NCBI GenBank assembly: GCA_048213135.1
Contig: PS015329.1
Coordinates: forward strand, 1-47,132
Direction: 5' to 3'
DNA from: Reclinomonas americana ATCC 50394
Lineage: Eukaryota
DNA length: 47,132 nt
The notes beneath the pieces were generated by a model. The model was not told where the DNA came from. It searched no databases and was given only the letters and a program-made list of their open reading frames with translations. Shown here piece by piece: positions 1 through 8,600 of the stretch. A program made the translations under genes and the position numbers. The first letter of the stretch is position 1, and every line of letters begins with the position of its first letter.

Positions 1-58
<58 letters not shown>

Positions 59-77
59 CTCCTCCTCCTCTCTCCTC

Positions 78-132
<55 letters not shown>

Positions 133-192
133 CTCCTCCTCCTCCTCCTCCTCCTCCTCCTTCTCCTCCCCCTCCCCCTCCCCCTCCCCCTC
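1..192. repeat. (CT)n/(CCT)n microsatellite in an LRR-gene intron; representative of many GA/CT and CA/TG tracts in the window
   Basis: Pure pyrimidine tract followed by the same acceptor motif as the LRR units. Similar tracts occur at e.g. 2100-3180, 5500-6500, 13250-14200, 27710-28250 and 34515-35350. Confidence 0.95.
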
Positions 193-199
193 TCTGCTG

Positions 200-2098
200 T
201 CAAAGTGACGTTCGTGTCACTGCAGAGATAACTCACACACTCTGCGTGCGTGCAGGCAATAGAATCGGTCCAGTGGGAGCACAAGCCATATCGCAGATGC
301 AATCACTGACGACCCTGGACATCAGCGGTGAACATCTTTTTTCCGCTCTGCTTGTAATCGTGCCACTGGGGAGCTCACGCTTTCCATGCTTGCAGGGAAC
401 GGAATCGGTCCAGAGGGTGCACAGGCCATATCGCACATGAGGTCGCTGACGACGCTGGACATTTGCTGTGCGTTCTCGTCGTTACTCTGCAGGTAGTGCT
501 GATGCTGGAGAGAGCTCACGCATTCTGCGTGGTTGCAGACAATGGAATCGGTCCAGTGGGAGCACAAGCCATAGCGCAGATGAGATCGCTGACGACGTTG
601 AACATTTGCTGTGAGTTCTCCTCTTTCTGCGAGAAGTGCGATATTTGTGTCACTCTGTGTGCATGTAGGGAACGCAATCGATCCAGAGGGAGCGCGAGCC
701 ATATCGCAGATGGGGTCGCTGACGGCGCTAGACATCAGCGGTGAACAACTCTTTCCGCTCCCCTTGCAGGGTGCTAATCGTGTCCCTGGAGAACTCACGC
801 ACTCTGTGTGCTTACAGGGAACGGATTCGGTCCAGAGGGAGCACAAGCCGTGTCGCAGATGAAGTCACTGACGACGCTGGACATTAGCGGTGAACTCTGC
901 TGGCAGGGCGATATTCGTGTCACTGGAGAACTCACGCACTCTGCAGGGAATGGAATCGGCCCAGAGGGAGCACAAGCCATATCGCAGATGCAGTCGCTGA
1001 CATCGCTGAGCGTCAACGGTGAACAACTCTTTCCACTTTGCCGGTTCGTGTCACTGGAGAGCTCACACACTCGGCAGACAATGGTCTCGGCCCAGAGACA
1101 GCACAAGCCATATCGAAGATGAAGTCACTGACGACGCTGGGCATTGGCGGTGAACCCTTGCCACTCCACAGGCACTGCGATGTTCGTGTAGCTCACGTTC
1201 ATTGCGTGCTTGCAGACAATCAAATCGGTCCAGCGGGAGCTCGAGTCATTTCGCAGATGCAGTCGCTGACGACACTGAACATCTGGAGTGAGTTCTCGTC
1301 ACCGTGCTGGCAGTGTGATGCGTGTGTCACTGAAGAGCTTGCAGGGAGTAAGGTCAGCCCAGAAGGAGCGCGCGCCATATCGCAGATGAAGGCACTGACA
1401 TCGCTGAGCATCGACGGTGAGCAAGGGAGAGGGAGAGGGAGAAGGAGAAAGAGGGAGAGAGAGAGAGAGAGGAGGAGAGGAGAGAGAGGAGAGAGAGAGG
1501 AGAAGAGAAGAGGAGGAGAGAGAGGTAGGGGGAGGGAGAAAGAGGGAGAAAGAGAGAGAGCTGGCGGTTCGTGTCCCTGTCGAGCTTACGCACTGTGCGT
1601 GCTCGCAGGGAATGGAATCGGTCCAGAGGGAGCACGCGCCATATCGCAGATGAAGTCGTTGACAGTGTTGGACATCAAAGGTGAACTCTTGCCACGTCGC
1701 CGACTGTGCGATGTTGTTTTGGAGAGCTCACGCACTGTGTGTGCTTGCAGACAATGGAATCGGTCCAGTGGGAGCAGAAGCCATATCGCAGATGCAGTCG
1801 CTGACGACGCTGGATATTAGCGGTAAACTCCTTATACTCTGCTGGCAGTGCGATGTTAGGAGAGCTCATGCACTGTGTGTGCTTGCAGACAATGAGATAG
1901 GCCCAGAAGGAGCACGCGCCATGTCGCAGATGCAGTCGTTGACGGCACTGAACATCTGGAGTGAGTTCTGCTGGGTGATGTAATGCTCGTGTCACTGGGG
2001 AGCTCACGCACTCTGCGCGCTTGCAGGGAATGAGATTGGTCCCGAGGGGGCACAGGCCATTTCGCAGATGAAGGAGCTGACGACGCTGACAATTGGTG
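200..2098 (+). repeat. Tandem array of ~130-150 bp intron+exon units
   Basis: Introns are 57-77 nt (one expanded to 192 nt by a GA tract) and share the motif TCGTGTCACTGGAGAGCTCACGCACTSTG upstream of a YAG acceptor. Confidence 0.9.
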
Positions 2099-3617
2099 GT
2101 GCGGAGAGAGAGGGGGAAACGGGGGGGGGAGTGGAGAGAGGGAAGGAAAGGGAAAGGGGAATAGAAAGGGAAAGGGGGAGGAGAGAGGGAAGGAAAGGGA
2201 AAGGGAGAGGAGAGAGGGAAAGGAAGGGAAAGAGGAATAGAAAGGGAAAGAGGGAGGAGAGAGGGAAAGGGGGCACTGAGTGTGTAAGAGAGGGAAAGGG
2301 GGAGAAGAGAGGGACAGGGGGAGTGAGTGCGTGAGAGAGGGAAGGGGGGAGAGAGGAAAAGGGGGAGCAGAGAGGGAAAGGGGGATGTAAGTGCGTGTGA
2401 GATGGATGGGTGGAGAGAGAAGGGGGAGTAGAGAGGGAACGGGGGAGGAGAGAGGGAAAGGGGAGTAGAGAGGGAAAGGGGGAGGAGAGAGGGGAAGGGG
2501 GAGGAGAGAGGGAAAGGGTGAGTAGAGAGAGAAAGGGGAATAGAGAGAGAAAGGGGAAGTGAGTGCGTGAGAGAGGGAAGGGGGGAGGAGAGAGGGAAGG
2601 GGAGGAGAGAGGGAAAGGGGGCACTGAGTGTGTAAGAGAGGGAAATGGAGAAGTGAGTACGCTAGATAGGGAAAGAGGAGAAATGAGAGAAAGGGGTCAA
2701 AGGGGTAGGGAATGGGTTAGAAAGGGAATGGGGGCACTGAGTGTGCAAGAGGAAAAAGGGGATTAGAGAGAGAAAGGGGGAAGTGCGTGCGCGAGAGATG
2801 GATGGGGGGAAGAGAGGGAAAGCGGGAAGCGGGTGCGTGAGAGAGGGAATGGGGAAAGTGAGTGAGTGAGAGGCTGAGAGTGAGCTCGAGTGCGTGAGAG
2901 AGGGAAAGAGGGAATTGGATGAGAGAGAGAGGGAAAGGGGGAGAAATGAGAGGGAAAGGGGGAGAAATGAGAGGGAAAGAAAGGGAAAAGGGAGTAGAGG
3001 GAAAGGGGGAGTAGAAAGGGAATGGTGGAAGTGAGTGCGTGAGAGTGGGAAAGGGGGAGGAGAAAGGATGAGGTGGAGTAGAGAGGGAATGGGGGAAGTG
3101 GGTGAGAGAGAGAGAGAGGGAAAGGAGTTAAGAGGGAAAGGGGAGCGAGTGGGTGAGCACTTGAGTGAGTGATTGTGGAAATGAGTGATTATGTAGGCGA
3201 GCTCCTTCTTTGCTCGAAACCCACTGAGCCCGTTGTACAGGAAACGACATTGGCGATGTCGGCGCCAAAGCAATTGCCTGCATGTCTGGCGTGAGCGTGG
3301 TCGGTGTCAATAGAACCAAGTTCCTCTCCAGCGGTGCGGCAAGAGCACCCAGTGATAGCCGCACTGTGTTTCAGATTATCAGTCTCACTGGCTTCCTCAC
3401 AGATTGTGTGAGTGAGACCGCCACCGCTGCTGCGGTAACAGAGGGAAAAGATGTCGACGGCGGTACGTGTAACGCAGTACATCTCATACGGAACTCCGCA
3501 ACCGTTTTGACAACAGGCGGCTGGCTACCTGATGGCGATCTATGGCCGATTGCAGTGGCCTTGCTCGCTGTGGCAGTCCCAGCAGCTGTCTTTTTGTATC
3601 GCCGGCAAGGACGCTAA
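256..3617 (+). CDS. LRR protein with C-terminal transmembrane helix (5' end outside window); one 24-aa LRR per 72-nt exon
   Basis: Thirteen AG/GT-bounded exons of exactly 72 nt, all phase 1: 256-327, 396-467, 539-610, 669-740, 818-889, 947-1018, 1078-1149, 1216-1287, 1345-1416, 1609-1680, 1751-1822, 1889-1960, 2027-2098. Consensus xNxIGPEGAxAISQMxSLTTLDIS (RI-like LRR, resembling the expanded Naegleria-type LRRs). The terminal region 3241-3617 starts with a degenerate LRR (NDIGDVGAKAIACM) and ends in LWPIAVALLAVAVPAAVFLY-RRQGR*. It may contain further short introns (e.g. 3463-3516). Confidence 0.9.
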
Positions 3618-3887
3618 GCAGCCTCCGCCGCCTCTCGGTGCAGCTATCCAGGCCGCTCTACAGCCTCCGCCACCTCCCAATGCAGCGATCCATGCCGCTC
3701 AGCAGCCACTGCAATAGGTGCGCATGCTGTCGAGCACGTTGGTGAGAACTGCCGTTCGTGAGCGTTGTTTTTGATAATCGTATAAAACAGAACGATGCAC
3801 TATGCTGCACATTTCTGCACTTTAGCAACGAGAAAGAGCAGGAAACCCCCTTCCACCTTAACCCTTCCCTTCAAATCCTTCATTCCC

Positions 3888-5618
3888 TCACAAATGCAAC
3901 ACCTCCACCGAATACGGCGGCACCGACGTCGGCATGCGCACCGGCCGCTGCACGAAATCCAGCCGCGCCAACAACAGCTCCAGCTCCTGGTATTCGGCCA
4001 CGTGCTTCTTCACCAGCTTCTCCACTTTCTGCAGCTCGGCGGCGCCGCTGTCCGAGACCACGAACGACAGCGAGTGGGCGTCGAGGACCACGTTGAGCCA
4101 GTCCACCATCTGTCGGAGAGGGAGAAGGGTGAGAAGGGGAGAAGGGAGGAGAGGGGGAAGGGGGAGGAGAGGGGGAAGGATGAGAGGGGAAAGGGAGGAG
4201 AGGGGAAGAAGAGAGGGGGAAGAAGAGAGGGGAAGGGGAGAAGGGAGGAGAGGGAGAAGGGTGAGAAGAGGGAAAGGAGGGGAGGGGGAAGGGGGAAGAG
4301 AGGGGGAAGGGGGAAGAGAGGGGGAAGGATGAGAGGGGGAGAGAGGGGGAAGAAATGAGTGACGGAAGGCGGAATAAAAAGAGAGAGCTAAAGAGGAGGG
4401 CGTGGAGAAGTGAAGGGTGAAACAGAATGAGCGATAATATGGACACATTCAAACCAGATGAACATGGTGTGAGCAATAACGACTGGCAACAAAAGATCAG
4501 AAACGAATCAGGAGGAGGGTCGAACATCGCAACTCACCAGCACGGAGAGACGAAGCGGGAAGGGACGAGAGAGAAGGAGGAAAAAGAATAAAGACTGTAG
4601 GAATCCAGATAGAGAGAGACTGTGGATGGGAGAAAAAGCGAGAGAAAGAGAGACGCAGAGAGGGAGAGGCAGAGGACTGCTGGAGAAAGGAAGGGGAAAG
4701 CGGGAAGGAGAAAGGAAGGCTGAGAGAGAGAAGAGAGATTGAGGAGAGAGAAAGAGAGCGAGAGAGCGGAGGGTGGGAGAAAGAAAAGAAAGAACGCTAT
4801 GAAGAAACGAAGGGAGAAGGGAGGAGAAAGGAAGGAAGAGAGAATGAGGAGGGAGAGAGAGAGAAACTCACGGTGGGAGAAAGAGGGACAGAGAAAGCAA
4901 GCAATGAAAAAGGAAGACTGCGAGACGCAGGGAGGGAGAGGCAGAGGACTTTTAAAGAAAGGAGAAAGGATGTTGGATTCAAGATTGAGAGACGCTTAGG
5001 GCGGGAGACAGAGGGAGAGAGAGAAAGGAAGCAAAACAAGAAAGTACACCGATTTAGCAGCACGGCGAGAAGGAGAGAGGCACTGTGCCACATGTAGCAA
5101 GCGAACCCAGCCGATAAAGACAGAAAAAATAGAACTGTAAGGTCGAGTGCAGAAGCCTCTCTAACACTCAGCGACAATGCCACTTGGCAGTCAAACTCAC
5201 ATCCGATTGACGCGGGTACCACAGCTCACGACCATGCAGCGACGAGTACGTGAGCTGCCGCCTGAGGTAGCCCACCAATTTCTGCAGCACGCCGATCGTC
5301 AGTCTCCACCACACCCACAATCATCATCTCAGAGCAGACTCACCAATGCCGACTCGCGTGGCACCTCACGCAGTCCCTGTCGCAGGAACAGATCGTTGCG
5401 CGGGAGCGAGAGAATCAAGTTCCTGCGCCACACACACACACACACATGTCATTTCACCGCACCATCACCAACTTCCTCTCTCTTTCTTTAACAGTTTCTT
5501 CATTCTCTCTCTCTCTCACACACACACACTCTCCCTCAGCCTCTATCATTCTCTTACAGTCTCCGTAAGTCTCTCTCACTGTCTCTCACTCATGTTGTCT
5601 CTCACTCATGCTGTCTCT

Positions 5619-5661
<43 letters not shown>

Positions 5662-8600
5662 ACATACTCTCTCAGTCTCCCTCAATCTCTGTCTCAATGA
5701 GTCACTTAGTCTCTCTCATTCTCTCTCAGTCTCTCTCAGTTTCTCAGTCGCTCTCTGTCTCTGTCTATCTCTCTCAATCTCTCAGTCACTCTGTCTCTGA
5801 GTCACTCTCAATCTCTCTCTCAGAGTGTCTTGCTCGCTCACTCAGTCTCTTACTTAATATCTTTCATCCTCACTCAGTCTCTATCACTCTCTCTCAATCT
5901 CTCTCAATCTCTTTCATCCTCTTTCGTCTCTCTACGTCTCTCTCAGTCTCTCTCTCATTCTCTCTCTCAGTCACTTTCATTCTATCTCAGGTATTTTCAT
6001 TCTCTCTCAGTCTCACTCAGTCCCTCTCCCTTTCTTTCCCTCTTTCCCTGTCTTTACATGTCTCTCTCTACCTCTGTCTCTCGTTCTCTTTCATCCTCTC
6101 TCTCATATCTCTCAGTGTCTCTCTCTCTCTCAATCTCTCTAATACTCCCGCAGTTTCCCTCGGTTTCTCATTCTCTCTCAATCTCTCTAATTCTCTCACA
6201 TACCTCAGTTTCTCAATCAAAATCTCTCAGTCTTTCTCTCAATCTCTCTAATTCTCTCGCAGTATCCCTCTCAATCTCTAAGTCTCTGTCTCTCTCTCTC
6301 TTCCCCTCTCCTTCCCTCTCCTTCCCCTTCCCCTTCTCCTCCCCTCTTCTCCTCCCTTCCCCTCTCTCTTCCCCTCTCTTCCCCTCTGCCTCCCCTCTCC
6401 CTCCCTCTCCCTCCCCTCTCCCTCCCCTCTCCCTACCCTCTCCCTCCCCTCTCCCTCCCCTCTCCCTCCCCTCTCCCTCCCCTCTCCCTCCCCCCCTCCC
6501 CTNNNNNNNNNNNNNNNNNNNNNNNNNNNNNNNNNNNNNNNNNNNNNNNNNNNNNNNNNNNNNNNNNNNNNNNNNNNNNNNNNNNNNNNNNNNNNNNNNN
6601 NNNNNNNNNNNNNNNNNNNNNNNNNNNNNNNNNNNNNNNNNNNNNNNNNNNNNNNNNNNNNNNNNNNNNNNNNNNNNNNNNNNNNNNNNNNNNNNNNNNN
6701 NNNNNNNNNNNNNNNNNNNNNNNNNNNNNNNNNNNNNNNNNNNNNNNNNNNNNNNNNNNNNNNNNNNNNNNNNNNNNNNNNNNNNNNNNNNNNNNNNNNN
6801 NNNNNNNNNNNNNNNNNNNNNNNNNNNNNNNNNNNNNNNNNNNNNNNNNNNNNNNNNNNNNNNNNNNNNNNNNNNNNNNNNNNNNNNNNNNNNNNNNNNN
6901 NNNNNNNNNNNNNNNNNNNNNNNNNNNNNNNNNNNNNNNNNNNNNNNNNNNNNNNNNNNNNNNNNNNNNNNNNNNNNNNNNNNNNNNNNNNNNNNNNNNN
7001 NNNNNNNNNNNNNNNNNNNNNNNNNNNNNNNNNNNNNNNNNNNNNNNNNNNNNNNNNNNNNNNNNNNNNNNNNNNNNNNNNNNNNNNNNNNNNNNNNNNN
7101 NNNTCCCCTCCCCTCCCCCTCTCCCTTTCCCCCTCCTCCCCTCCCTCTCGCCTCCCCCTTCCCCTCCCCCTCTCCCGCCCCACCACTCAACAGCAGCTTC
7201 CGACACATCACCACCGGCGTGTCCCTGCCCTCGGGCGGCGCACGCCACTGATCCAAGTGCGGCTTCACCGCCGGATCGAAAATCTTCAGCACGTAGTTGA
7301 GCAGCGCCACCACCGCGTTCTCCGGCAGCTCCGTGCAGGCGGCCACCAGGGTGCCGAGGAGGAACTGCGATAGACGGGGAAGGGCGATTAGGGGAAGGGT
7401 TGATCAAGGAGAGGGATAGGGGAACAAACACAGTCACCACACGCTGCCACTACATCTCACATCTCACTCTCCTCCCATTACCCCTCTCCCTATGAAAATG
7501 AGAGGGGGAAGGGGATTAGGGGAAGGGTTGATCAAGGAGAGGGACGAGAGAGGGAAGGGAGACAAAAAGAGAGGGATGGGATATATGAGAGTGAAGGAAA
7601 TGCAGAGTAAGAAAGTGCGGAACAGAGGAGGAAAACACCACAAGAGTTGTGACGAAGGAGACGAGAACACAAGACACAAGAGGGGAAGGGAGAGTAAGGA
7701 GATCGACAGGAGGAGCAGGGAGACTGAGACGGAGGGGGCAAGGCAGAGCAAGATGCGGGAGGAAATGAAAGCGTGGTACAGAGTTGGAGAAGAGCACCAC
7801 AAGAGTTGTGACGAAGGAGAATAGGCCATGTGAGCAAAGTAAGACAAACGCAAGTGGCATCAACATTTTCACACACTCACAAGATTAGAGACACGAGGGC
7901 AAACACAAAGATAAACAGCAGAAGCGCGCGAGTCTTTGACAGCACATGGAAGACGAATGTCAATCAAGCTCAAAACAAGAATCTCACACAACTTAGCACG
8001 CGCAAGAAAAACACGAGCCGCGGTGACGTGGAACGAAATGAACAGCGAGATGGAGGAAAGAGGAAGAGTGGAGGGTCAAGGAGCAAGGCAGCGAGTAGTA
8101 GACAATCAGTTAGAGGGCAAGAGGGAGAGAAAGATGCTATCTCGGCAGTCGTCAGAGAATCAAAACACAAGTAAAGCAAAGAGACATGGCATCTCACAAA
8201 ACTAACGCATGATTAGAACATCACGGATGATTAAAACTAACTGACAGCAAGAGAAGTAGCAAGAACGGACGCACAAATGTTGTGAGAGAATCAAGGCGCA
8301 AGCCAGAGAGCAGAGCAAAAGAGACATGGCATGTCACAAAACTTGACGAGAGCGGACAATGCACAATAAGCAACACGCTACCACACTACAGAAACAAGAA
8401 GGCAAGGTAACGAATCGAGAGTAGGTGCAAAGCAGACCACACAGTCCTTCCCCTCCCTCTCCTATCCTCACTCTAATAAATAATAAAAATAATAAAACTT
8501 CACTGAGACATACACAACAACGAGCTTCTATCAGTGATCGCCAACAAGTCTCGTGTGCTTTCCTTCTACAGCAAATTAAGTTGCCGTGGGAGAGACTTCT

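Follow-up and report, generated by a model that had tools for sequence, protein, structure and literature searches.

A tandem array of 72-nt exons, each encoding one leucine-rich repeat, joined to a predicted C-terminal membrane helix in Reclinomonas americana

Does a gene in which every leucine-rich repeat (LRR) occupies its own interchangeable exon exist to generate diversity, or is it an ordinary gene that grew by duplication? The question is raised by one end of a 47,132-nucleotide stretch of Reclinomonas americana ATCC 50394 DNA (assembly GCA_048213135.1, contig PS015329.1, positions 1 to 47,132 of the forward strand), hereafter the window. An earlier note on this DNA had described positions 256-3617 as a membrane-anchored LRR receptor built from exon cassettes and open to combinatorial diversification. 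The locus was analysed computationally, and the answer that we favour, at somewhat better than even odds, is that it is the 3' part of an ordinary germline-encoded gene, probably constitutively spliced, which encodes a membrane-anchored solenoid of at least 14 GALA/GL-type LRRs.

The window was scanned for 72-nt open frames bordered by an AG acceptor and a GT donor. Thirteen LRR exons, every one exactly 72 nt long, were found on the plus strand between positions 256 and 2098. Acceptor and donor are present in all 13 cassettes, with 26 of 26 splice dinucleotides intact and all 13 frames open. The introns are in phase 1 throughout, each codon at a splice junction taking its first base from the end of one exon and its other two from the start of the next (13/13). 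Each cassette encodes a single 24-residue LRR, with the consensus x-N-x-I-G-P-E-G-A-x-A-I-S-Q-M-x-S-L-T-x-L-x-I-x. An nhmmer model built from the 13 exons recovered precisely 13 cassette sites among the 47,132 bases (E 1e-22 to 2.7e-17), and a 78-letter IUPAC pattern covering acceptor, cassette and donor fitted 10 of the 13 cassettes and nothing in 100 shuffles. As layout and as observation, a real tandem-exon LRR gene is confirmed; the 13 phase-1 exons with one LRR each, as first described, are borne out by the scan, the splice borders, nhmmer and the translation. The count of 13 is a lower bound, because the window opens within an upstream intron. The array is laid out as follows.

1-255, plus strand: upstream intron, 3' part; CT/CCT microsatellite at 1-192, with 193-255 aligning with the 3' ends of the other introns; ends ...GTGCAG
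256-327, plus strand: LRR cassette 1; 72 nt, phase 1-1
396-467, plus strand: LRR cassette 2; final base T, donor GTGCGTTCT
539-610, plus strand: LRR cassette 3; final base T, donor GTGAGTTCT
669-740, plus strand: LRR cassette 4
818-889, plus strand: LRR cassette 5
947-1018, plus strand: LRR cassette 6
1078-1149, plus strand: LRR cassette 7
1216-1287, plus strand: LRR cassette 8; final base A, donor GTGAGTTCT
1345-1416, plus strand: LRR cassette 9; the most divergent cassette (SKVSPEG...)
1417-1608, plus strand: intron 9; 192 nt, ends like those of the short introns, GA-rich microsatellite inserted
1609-1680, plus strand: LRR cassette 10
1751-1822, plus strand: LRR cassette 11; donor GTAAAC
1889-1960, plus strand: LRR cassette 12; final base A, donor GTGAGTTCT
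2027-2098, plus strand: LRR cassette 13
2099-3240, plus strand: intron 13; 1142 nt, nearly all purine-rich low-complexity sequence, 16 stops in the exon frame, acceptor ...GTTGTACAG

Copies of the cassette are confined to this array. On both strands of the window, nhmmer gave nothing outside the 13 cassettes better than E 0.66, and nhmmer together with a six-frame hmmsearch of the window revealed no orphan, inactivated or reverse-strand cassettes, the only addition being a weak 14th repeat. Cassettes were absent by nhmmer from either strand of the roughly 43 kb downstream (3618-47132). The 78-letter pattern had no matches in metagenome, viral and prokaryotic genome collections, a degenerate DNA pattern for GPEGA.AISQM had none in metagenome contigs, and Rfam had none across the window. 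A gene on the minus strand was also considered and was dropped, as the minus strand of 201-2150 holds just two AG[72]GT sites, without periodicity.

The introns were compared with one another to define the unit that was copied. Their lengths in order are 68, 71, 58, 77, 57, 59, 66, 57, 192, 70, 66, 66 and 1142 nt, so that 11 of the 13 fall between 57 and 77 nt; both long introns are short-type introns enlarged by purine-rich microsatellites. The 11 short introns share a mean pairwise identity of 72% over shared columns, versus 38-43% in shuffled controls. They share sequence blocks at the 5' end (GTGAAC or GTGAGT), in the middle and at the 3' end, the last of the form ...GAGCTCACGCACTCTG.GTGCTTGCAG or ...CGTGTCACTGGAGAGCTCACGCACTCTG.GTGCTTGCAG. 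As the introns are homologous and share these blocks, whole exon-plus-intron units were copied, and the array was also detected by Tandem Repeats Finder at periods of 131-142. The duplicated unit is therefore an exon with its intron, about 130-150 bp long, copied in tandem.

Two further features of the introns were observed. The lengths of introns 5 (890-946), 7 (1150-1215), 8 (1288-1344), 9 (1417-1608) and 11 (1823-1888) are divisible by three and these introns are free of stops in the exon frame, which means that their retention would preserve the reading frame. One uninterrupted open frame of 265 codons (1023-1820) spans cassettes 7-10.

The earlier note had also sorted the cassettes into interleaved subtypes. 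The pattern can be recovered in part: cassettes 2, 3, 8 and 12 (4/13) end in TGCT or TGGA and are followed by a donor of the form GTG[A/C]GTTCT, such that two exon-end/donor types do co-vary. Along the array, however, these types follow the irregular order A B B A A A A B A A A B A, and clades corresponding to them are unresolved in the tree of the units, where none of the 10 inner branches is supported.

The repeat class was assessed with a profile of the 14 repeats. Searched against the PDB, it returned a single sequence at E <= 0.1, the 'GALA protein' 9j7j_A (E 2.5e-5), with matches that recur every 24 residues. Single exons gave Pfam LRR_6 matches (E 7.5e-4 and 2.1e-3) that fall short of the cut-off, as sequences of only 23 residues can be expected to do. 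In the account given in parts of Kajava et al. 2008 (PMC2244805), GALA/GL-LRRs are 24 residues long and belong to the CC-LRR subfamily; position 3 is Asn, positions 5-7 read Ile-Gly-Asp, position 9 is Gly or Ala and position 10 Ala, and the apolar positions are 5, 10, 13, 19, 22 and 24. The 13 cassettes follow this numbering closely: Asn3 occurs in 12, Ile5 in 10 (the rest Phe, Leu or Val), Gly6 in 11, Gly9 in 12 and Ala10 in all 13; position 13 is Ile in 11 (the rest Val or Met), Leu19 and Leu22 are invariant, and position 24 is Ile in 12 and Val in the other. By their 24-residue length, these consensus positions and the profile match to 9j7j_A, the cassettes are GALA/GL-type LRRs of the CC-LRR subfamily.

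The agreement with described GALA/GL-LRRs thus covers repeat length, Asn3, Ile-Gly at 5-6, Gly9, Ala10 and the apolar residues at 13, 19, 22 and 24. The cassettes differ in carrying Pro at position 7, where GALA has Asp, and an invariant Met at position 16, where GALA is unconserved and GL-LRRs have Leu. The members described in those parts of the source have an F-box or consist of LRRs alone, and most come from bacteria and lack introns, whereas the gene here carries one repeat per exon and ends in a predicted membrane anchor.

Three kinds of query were used to seek relatives: 23-residue single exons, the tail exon, and a read-through piece at 1080-1415 that spans, in frame, three cassettes and two translated introns. 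Against longer proteins, the read-through piece gave six matches from 982 candidates, all of them bacterial or metagenomic LRR proteins at 25-32% identity, with no eukaryotic gene model among the six. The best relatives were the bacterial LRR-ROC-COR proteins P0001 and P0002 (Myxococcota, metagenomes) at 29-32% identity. A 24-residue ...LTxLxLxxNxIGxxGAxAL... unit is common to these proteins and to the cassettes, but the bacterial genes are uninterrupted and their LRRs lie N-terminal to a ROC-COR GTPase, of which none was seen downstream of the LRRs in this gene. In the Atlas, the read-through piece fell among generic LRR_6 clusters of bacteria, ciliates, euglenozoans and haptophytes (0.92-0.94), and no family was identified. 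Another of the relatives found, P0003 (346 residues, Lys/Asn-rich, NCBI/Logan source), contains LRRs of the form ...GAxxISxMxxLxxLxIxxNxIGxxGA..., with Met at 16 as in the cassettes. This likeness may bear on the exchange of GALA-type LRRs between eukaryotes and their bacteria.

Divergence among the cassettes was measured to assess the age of the copies and the constraint upon them. The exons have a mean identity of 75.6%, the closest pair being cassettes 1 and 11 (89%), and identity at codon positions 1, 2 and 3 is 77.5, 83.6 and 69.2%, with the third position least conserved. Maximum-likelihood analysis of the 13 units gave a star tree with a median end branch of 0.17. Nonsynonymous (pN) and synonymous (pS) differences were counted among the 13 cassettes by the Nei-Gojobori method, with bootstrap intervals of 2.5-97.5%. 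Over all 24 codons, pN was 0.196 and pS 0.394 (pN/pS 0.50, 0.40-0.62), and over the 17 scaffold codons the values were 0.087 and 0.345 (pN/pS 0.25, 0.16-0.37). The star tree, the long end branches, the overall pS and the distance between even the closest pair indicate that the copies are old and have undergone no fresh exchanges. The low ratios, above all that of the scaffold, show that the array is coding and constrained, and the scaffold is under purifying selection.

Variability is concentrated on the strand side of the repeat. With positions counted from the Asn and the junction residue taken as 24, entropy peaks at positions 23, 24, 2 and 21 (2.62, 2.04, 2.03 and 1.99 bits, respectively) and is zero across the 13 cassettes at six scaffold positions (P5, A8, M14, L17, T18 and L20). 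The earlier description of a conserved helix and a variable strand agrees with these values, and the strand words that it listed (LDIS, LDIC, LNIC, LSVN, LGIG, LNIW, LSID, LDIK and LTIG) were all found in the translation. Any LRR consensus also shows this pattern. At the five concave-face or adjacent x positions (19, 21, 23, the junction and 2), pN was 0.477 and pS 0.488, giving a pN/pS of 0.98 (0.66-1.75). The exposed strand positions look neutral, drifting about as fast as silent sites, and an excess of amino-acid change at the concave face was not demonstrable among these 13 cassettes of one gene, although comparing repeat with repeat inside one protein tests diversifying selection only weakly. 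Because the interval includes 1, positive selection was dropped as an explanation for the concave face.

The codons that span the splice junctions were considered separately, as each is assembled from both flanking exons and encodes a concave-face residue. The last base of a cassette is G in nine cases, T in two (cassettes 2 and 3) and A in two (cassettes 8 and 12); the first two bases are GG in seven, AC in five and GC in one, and the tail exon opens with GA. Read along the germline array, the junctions encode G, Y, W, G, G, D, D, R, G, D, D, R and G. Since both neighbours compose the codon, novel joins would produce new residues. The earlier note had stated that cassettes can be skipped, duplicated or swapped without loss of frame. 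The frame is indeed always kept, but a T-ending cassette (2 or 3) spliced straight to the tail exon would produce TGA.

Downstream of intron 13, the acceptor at 3240/3241 opens a terminal exon (3241-3617) in cassette phase and register, with the following parts.

3241-3311, plus strand: start of the terminal exon, a degenerate 14th LRR (NDIGDVGAKAIACM...); cassette register and phase, without a donor after 72 nt
3312-3539, plus strand: stalk of 76 residues, Ser/Thr/Ala-rich, with two Cys and one N-x-T sequon
3540-3599, plus strand: predicted transmembrane helix (LWPIAVALLAVAVPAAVFLY); best 19-residue Kyte-Doolittle mean 2.42
3600-3617, plus strand: basic tail RRQGR and stop codon TAA (3615-3617)

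The terminal exon thus comprises a degenerate repeat, a stalk, one hydrophobic helix and a short basic tail. It is taken as the last exon because a convergent open frame on the minus strand lies about 270 nt beyond it. The predicted helix occupies residues 100-119 of the 124 residues encoded, so that five residues follow it. The tail exon has few points of comparison: Pfam found no family on it, including no cysteine-rich LRR cap, a word search among longer proteins returned no matches, and there were none among 1.84 billion representatives at E <= 0.001. Atlas scores of at most 0.81 offer a weak lead only, and an AlphaFold single-sequence model was unusable (mean pLDDT 44.1). A 42-nt tandem repeat (3608-3707; 2.4 copies, 79% matches) begins just 5' of the stop codon and runs into the 3' flank.

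Membrane anchoring through the C-terminal helix is predicted from these features and is fairly likely, in line with the earlier view that the array is joined to a transmembrane anchor; the tail exon continues the register and phase of the array and ends in a hydrophobic helix. The side of the membrane on which the LRRs lie is close to evenly balanced. In tail-anchored proteins the only transmembrane helix lies no more than about 30 residues from the C-terminus, as does the predicted helix here, and the GALA/CC-type LRR class is typical of intracellular proteins (F-box, ROCO and similar). The repeat class and the mere five residues after the helix argue for a cytosolic, tail-anchored protein, as do the single cysteines that cassettes 2 and 3 expose on the strand; a helix this near the C-terminus suits a type I protein equally well. 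A type I surface protein is favoured by the stalk, with its two Cys and one sequon, and by the basic residues beyond the helix, which are compatible with a C-terminus in the cytosol. The word receptor, as used in the earlier description, presupposes an outward-facing LRR domain.

A plain mechanism may account for these observations. The array would have grown by tandem duplication, through unequal crossing-over, of the unit of 72-nt exon and short intron. Because the exon is symmetric (phase 1-1) and equals one 24-residue repeat, each gain or loss of a unit would add or remove one turn of the solenoid with the frame intact. Only symmetric one-repeat units can be gained or lost harmlessly, which makes interchangeability both a condition for duplicates to persist and an expected by-product of growth; by itself it does not point to a mechanism for generating diversity. 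Within the protein, the P5-M14 segment (P-E-G-A-x-A-I-S-Q-M, numbered from the Asn) would form the helix and packing core, and L17-x-x-L20-x-I22 with the next Asn would make up the strand. Variable positions 21, 23, 2 and the split-codon junction would line the concave sheet, the usual LRR ligand face and here a putative protein-ligand face. The 76-residue stalk and the single C-terminal helix followed by RRQGR would fix the protein to a membrane. Very short introns favour intron-defined splicing and constitutive inclusion, and the 57-77-nt introns would accordingly be expected to be removed constitutively, intron by intron.

Genes with one LRR per exon have precedents with which the array can be compared. 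Passages of Zambounis et al. 2012 (PMC3341825) describe Ectocarpus ROCO LRRs that are each a single 72-nt exon, with 13 and 17 LRR exons in two recent duplicates, orphan and reverse-strand LRRs within introns as a hallmark of shuffling, and C-terminal transmembrane segments in some ROCO members, the bulk of the protein being thought cytoplasmic. The precedent cited in the earlier note is thus real. In sections of Teng et al. 2024 (PMC11378527), nucleotides 3-71 of the brown-algal 72-bp exon are reported to code for 23 residues, and up to nine splice variants with different LRR combinations are reported. As depicted in these passages, the genes of Ectocarpus and Saccharina share with the present array one LRR per 72-nt exon, an identical split-codon phase, arrays of 13-17 exons and, in some cases, C-terminal transmembrane segments; binding diversity is proposed there to stem from the modularity of the exons. 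According to the same passages, the LRR class differs (GxxPxxLxxxxxLxxLxLxxNxLx there, xNxIGPEGAxAISQMxSLTxLxIx here), and the Asn is exon residue 21 (type I) or 5 (type II), versus residue 2 here. Further differences are that cassette 13 is followed here by the tail exon and stop, with no ROC-COR after the LRRs, that orphan cassettes, reverse-strand cassettes and recently exchanged fragments are absent from this window, and that the introns are only 57-77 nt long. Brown-algal introns are much longer. With class and register different and ROC-COR lacking after the LRRs, the gene is placed outside the brown-algal family, and the layouts compared here suggest that one LRR per exon probably arose independently in the two.

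Animal systems offer further parallels. Lamprey and hagfish variable lymphocyte receptors (VLRs) consist of an LRR solenoid, a stalk and a membrane anchor, with diversity drawn from LRR cassettes. A VLR cassette is no exon: somatic gene conversion copies it into a germline gene that is itself incomplete. The likeness lies in the cassette-like array, stalk and predicted anchor, whereas the cassettes here are exons of a contiguous gene with no donor cassettes in the downstream flank. Plant SERK and animal glycoprotein-hormone/LGR receptor genes have about 72-bp one-LRR exons, which the literature search did not confirm. In the portions of PMC10950545 that concern them, the NLRP3 LRR exons are 171 bp long, hold two repeats, lie in the same frame, are alternatively spliced and are likened to VLRs. 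NLRP3 and other vertebrate NLR genes resemble the array, in that account, through LRR exons of uniform length and frame of which any combination can be dropped while the domain still folds; they differ in exon length, in repeats of 28 and 29 residues (RI type) and in encoding cytosolic NACHT proteins without a membrane anchor. No GALA-type LRR split into one repeat per exon was found in the literature search, although brown-algal supplementary LRR lists, which lie outside it, could contain some; of the papers returned on tandem exon duplication in LRR genes, the Ectocarpus study was the single relevant one. The one-LRR-per-exon design is already known in other lineages, and what differs here is the GALA-type repeat and its exon register.

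Several points weigh against an ordinary, constitutively spliced gene and were set against the evidence above. The join between cassette 13 and the tail exon is drawn from register and phase alone. The term constitutive is inferred from intron size, and the splice junctions are predicted from the DNA. Symmetric cassettes permit exon skipping, and Ectocarpus ROCO genes and NLRP3 do skip exons, as the cited passages of those sources relate. Finally, the concave-face codons vary like synonymous sites, and with an upper bound of 1.75 some diversifying pressure remains compatible with the counts.

The first rival explanation to be weighed is alternative splicing, in which varied subsets of cassettes would be skipped and one gene would yield many membrane-anchored LRR isoforms. 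Any subset of cassettes would remain in frame given their uniform length and phase, and novel joins would make new concave-face residues (G, D, Y, W, R, N, S and C). By analogy, the Ectocarpus transcripts (up to nine) and the 171-bp NLRP3 exons, as described in parts of PMC11378527 and PMC10950545, offer precedents. However, 11 of the 13 introns measure just 57-77 nt, the 13 donors and acceptors are similar and look equally strong, with no obvious weak sites, and either of two cassettes joined to the tail exon would create TGA. Organisms with such short introns pair their splice sites across the intron, and in them retained introns predominate over skipped exons. An isoform repertoire is therefore a possibility, but an unlikely one. 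Its fullest form, a protist in which regulated skipping of at least 13 one-LRR exons produces a combinatorial repertoire of membrane-anchored GALA-type binders, is decidedly improbable; if true, it would parallel Dscam or VLR diversity at the RNA level and would have evolved separately from the ROCO system of brown algae.

Diversity could also arise in the germline, if the array were a recombination hot spot that varied among strains or paralogues under diversifying selection and encoded a candidate immune receptor. Homologous tandem units of 130-150 bp are a natural substrate for unequal crossing-over, the variability is concentrated at concave-face positions, and an immune-type gene (NACHT-WD40, STAND) lies 12.5 kb downstream. 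Rapid turnover is nonetheless difficult to reconcile with units that are about 75% identical, with a star-like tree with long end branches and with a best pair at 89%, which leaves no recent copies. Concave-face pN/pS is not above 1, and the introns and the window contain no inactivated or reverse-strand cassettes, which accompany shuffling in Ectocarpus according to the passages cited. Fast germline turnover is accordingly quite unlikely. The earlier note had proposed both a per-codon comparison and a search for orphan cassettes: the former produced no excess of nonsynonymous change at the concave face, and the latter, run within the 47-kb window, produced none on either strand. Its notion of a combinatorially diversifiable protein holds formally, through the symmetry of the exons, and is not otherwise favoured by a neutral-like concave face, old equidistant units and a window without orphan cassettes.

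The array might instead be dead or mis-assembled, either as a pseudogene remnant or as a collapsed or expanded repeat whose expression would not follow the reading given here. The assembly is a draft, with 11 N-runs totalling 4,434 bases in the window; the start of the gene lies outside the window, and the tail exon is without a relative among the 1.84 billion representatives. Positions 1-6502, however, are free of N-runs, every frame is open and every splice dinucleotide intact, the scaffold has a pN/pS of 0.25 and conservation is lowest at third codon positions. Assembly collapse is made unlikely by units that differ by about 25%, and this explanation as a whole is very improbable. Somatic assembly, in which individual cells would copy or rearrange cassettes at the DNA level, as in lamprey VLR genes, and so come to carry clonally different receptors, is almost certainly wrong, as its resemblance in array, stalk and anchor is formal only, while the locus is already complete and spliceable rather than an incomplete gene, has canonical splice sites on every cassette and no flanking donor cassettes in the 43 kb downstream, and consists of old, diverged units followed by a tail exon on which Pfam finds no cysteine-rich LRR cap.

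The rest of the window consists of ordinary eukaryotic genes with GT-AG introns, together with abundant purine- and pyrimidine-rich low-complexity DNA. The genes recognised are the following.

3888-4448, minus strand: weak Nol11-like open frame (Nol11-like part 3891-4448), convergent to the LRR gene
16111-20100, plus strand: intronless open frame of 1329 residues, NACHT-type/pentapeptide/WD40
25209-26090 and 27354-27800, minus strand: carboxypeptidase Taq (M32) metallopeptidase in two exons (Pfam E 1.3e-24 and 3.7e-19)
about 34-35 kb, minus strand: WD40 gene
40915-43570, plus strand: ankyrin/coiled-coil/kinase gene (Pfam Ank_2 E 1.5e-18; protein-kinase C-lobe E 4.1e-5)
44130-46632, plus strand: TLC-domain (TRAM/LAG1/CLN8) gene of at least two exons (Pfam E 1.1e-10 and 1e-7)

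In the case of the NLR-like gene at 16111-20100, which is separated from the LRR gene by 12.5 kb, the N-terminal region is STAND/NACHT-like; after it come a pentapeptide-repeat stretch and 12 Pfam WD40 stretches, the latter looking nearly identical to one another in translation. Its NACHT region gave 19 matches at 25-33% identity, mostly in Mortierellaceae fungi. The M32 exons are separated by repeat-rich introns and one N-run. In the ankyrin gene, the exon for the kinase N-lobe resembles, by eye, plant-type IRAK/Pelle-like kinases. Low-complexity repeats of CT, GA and GGA type crowd introns and spacers, including 1-192, 1427-1560, 2103-3015, 4115-4359, 5504-6493 and many others.

If the plain reading is true, that of an ordinary gene enlarged by tandem duplication, the locus would be a further clean and apparently independent case of an LRR solenoid that grew by symmetric one-repeat exons, and it would extend the rule to a GALA-type repeat and to a third exon register. 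This would be useful for gene prediction, in which such arrays are readily missed or merged, and would also bear on the question of the origin of bacterial GALA-like LRRs. Were transcripts or strains to vary in cassette content, the array, with its 72-nt exons and introns of about 65 nt, would be a compact model for receptor diversification outside animals and brown algae.

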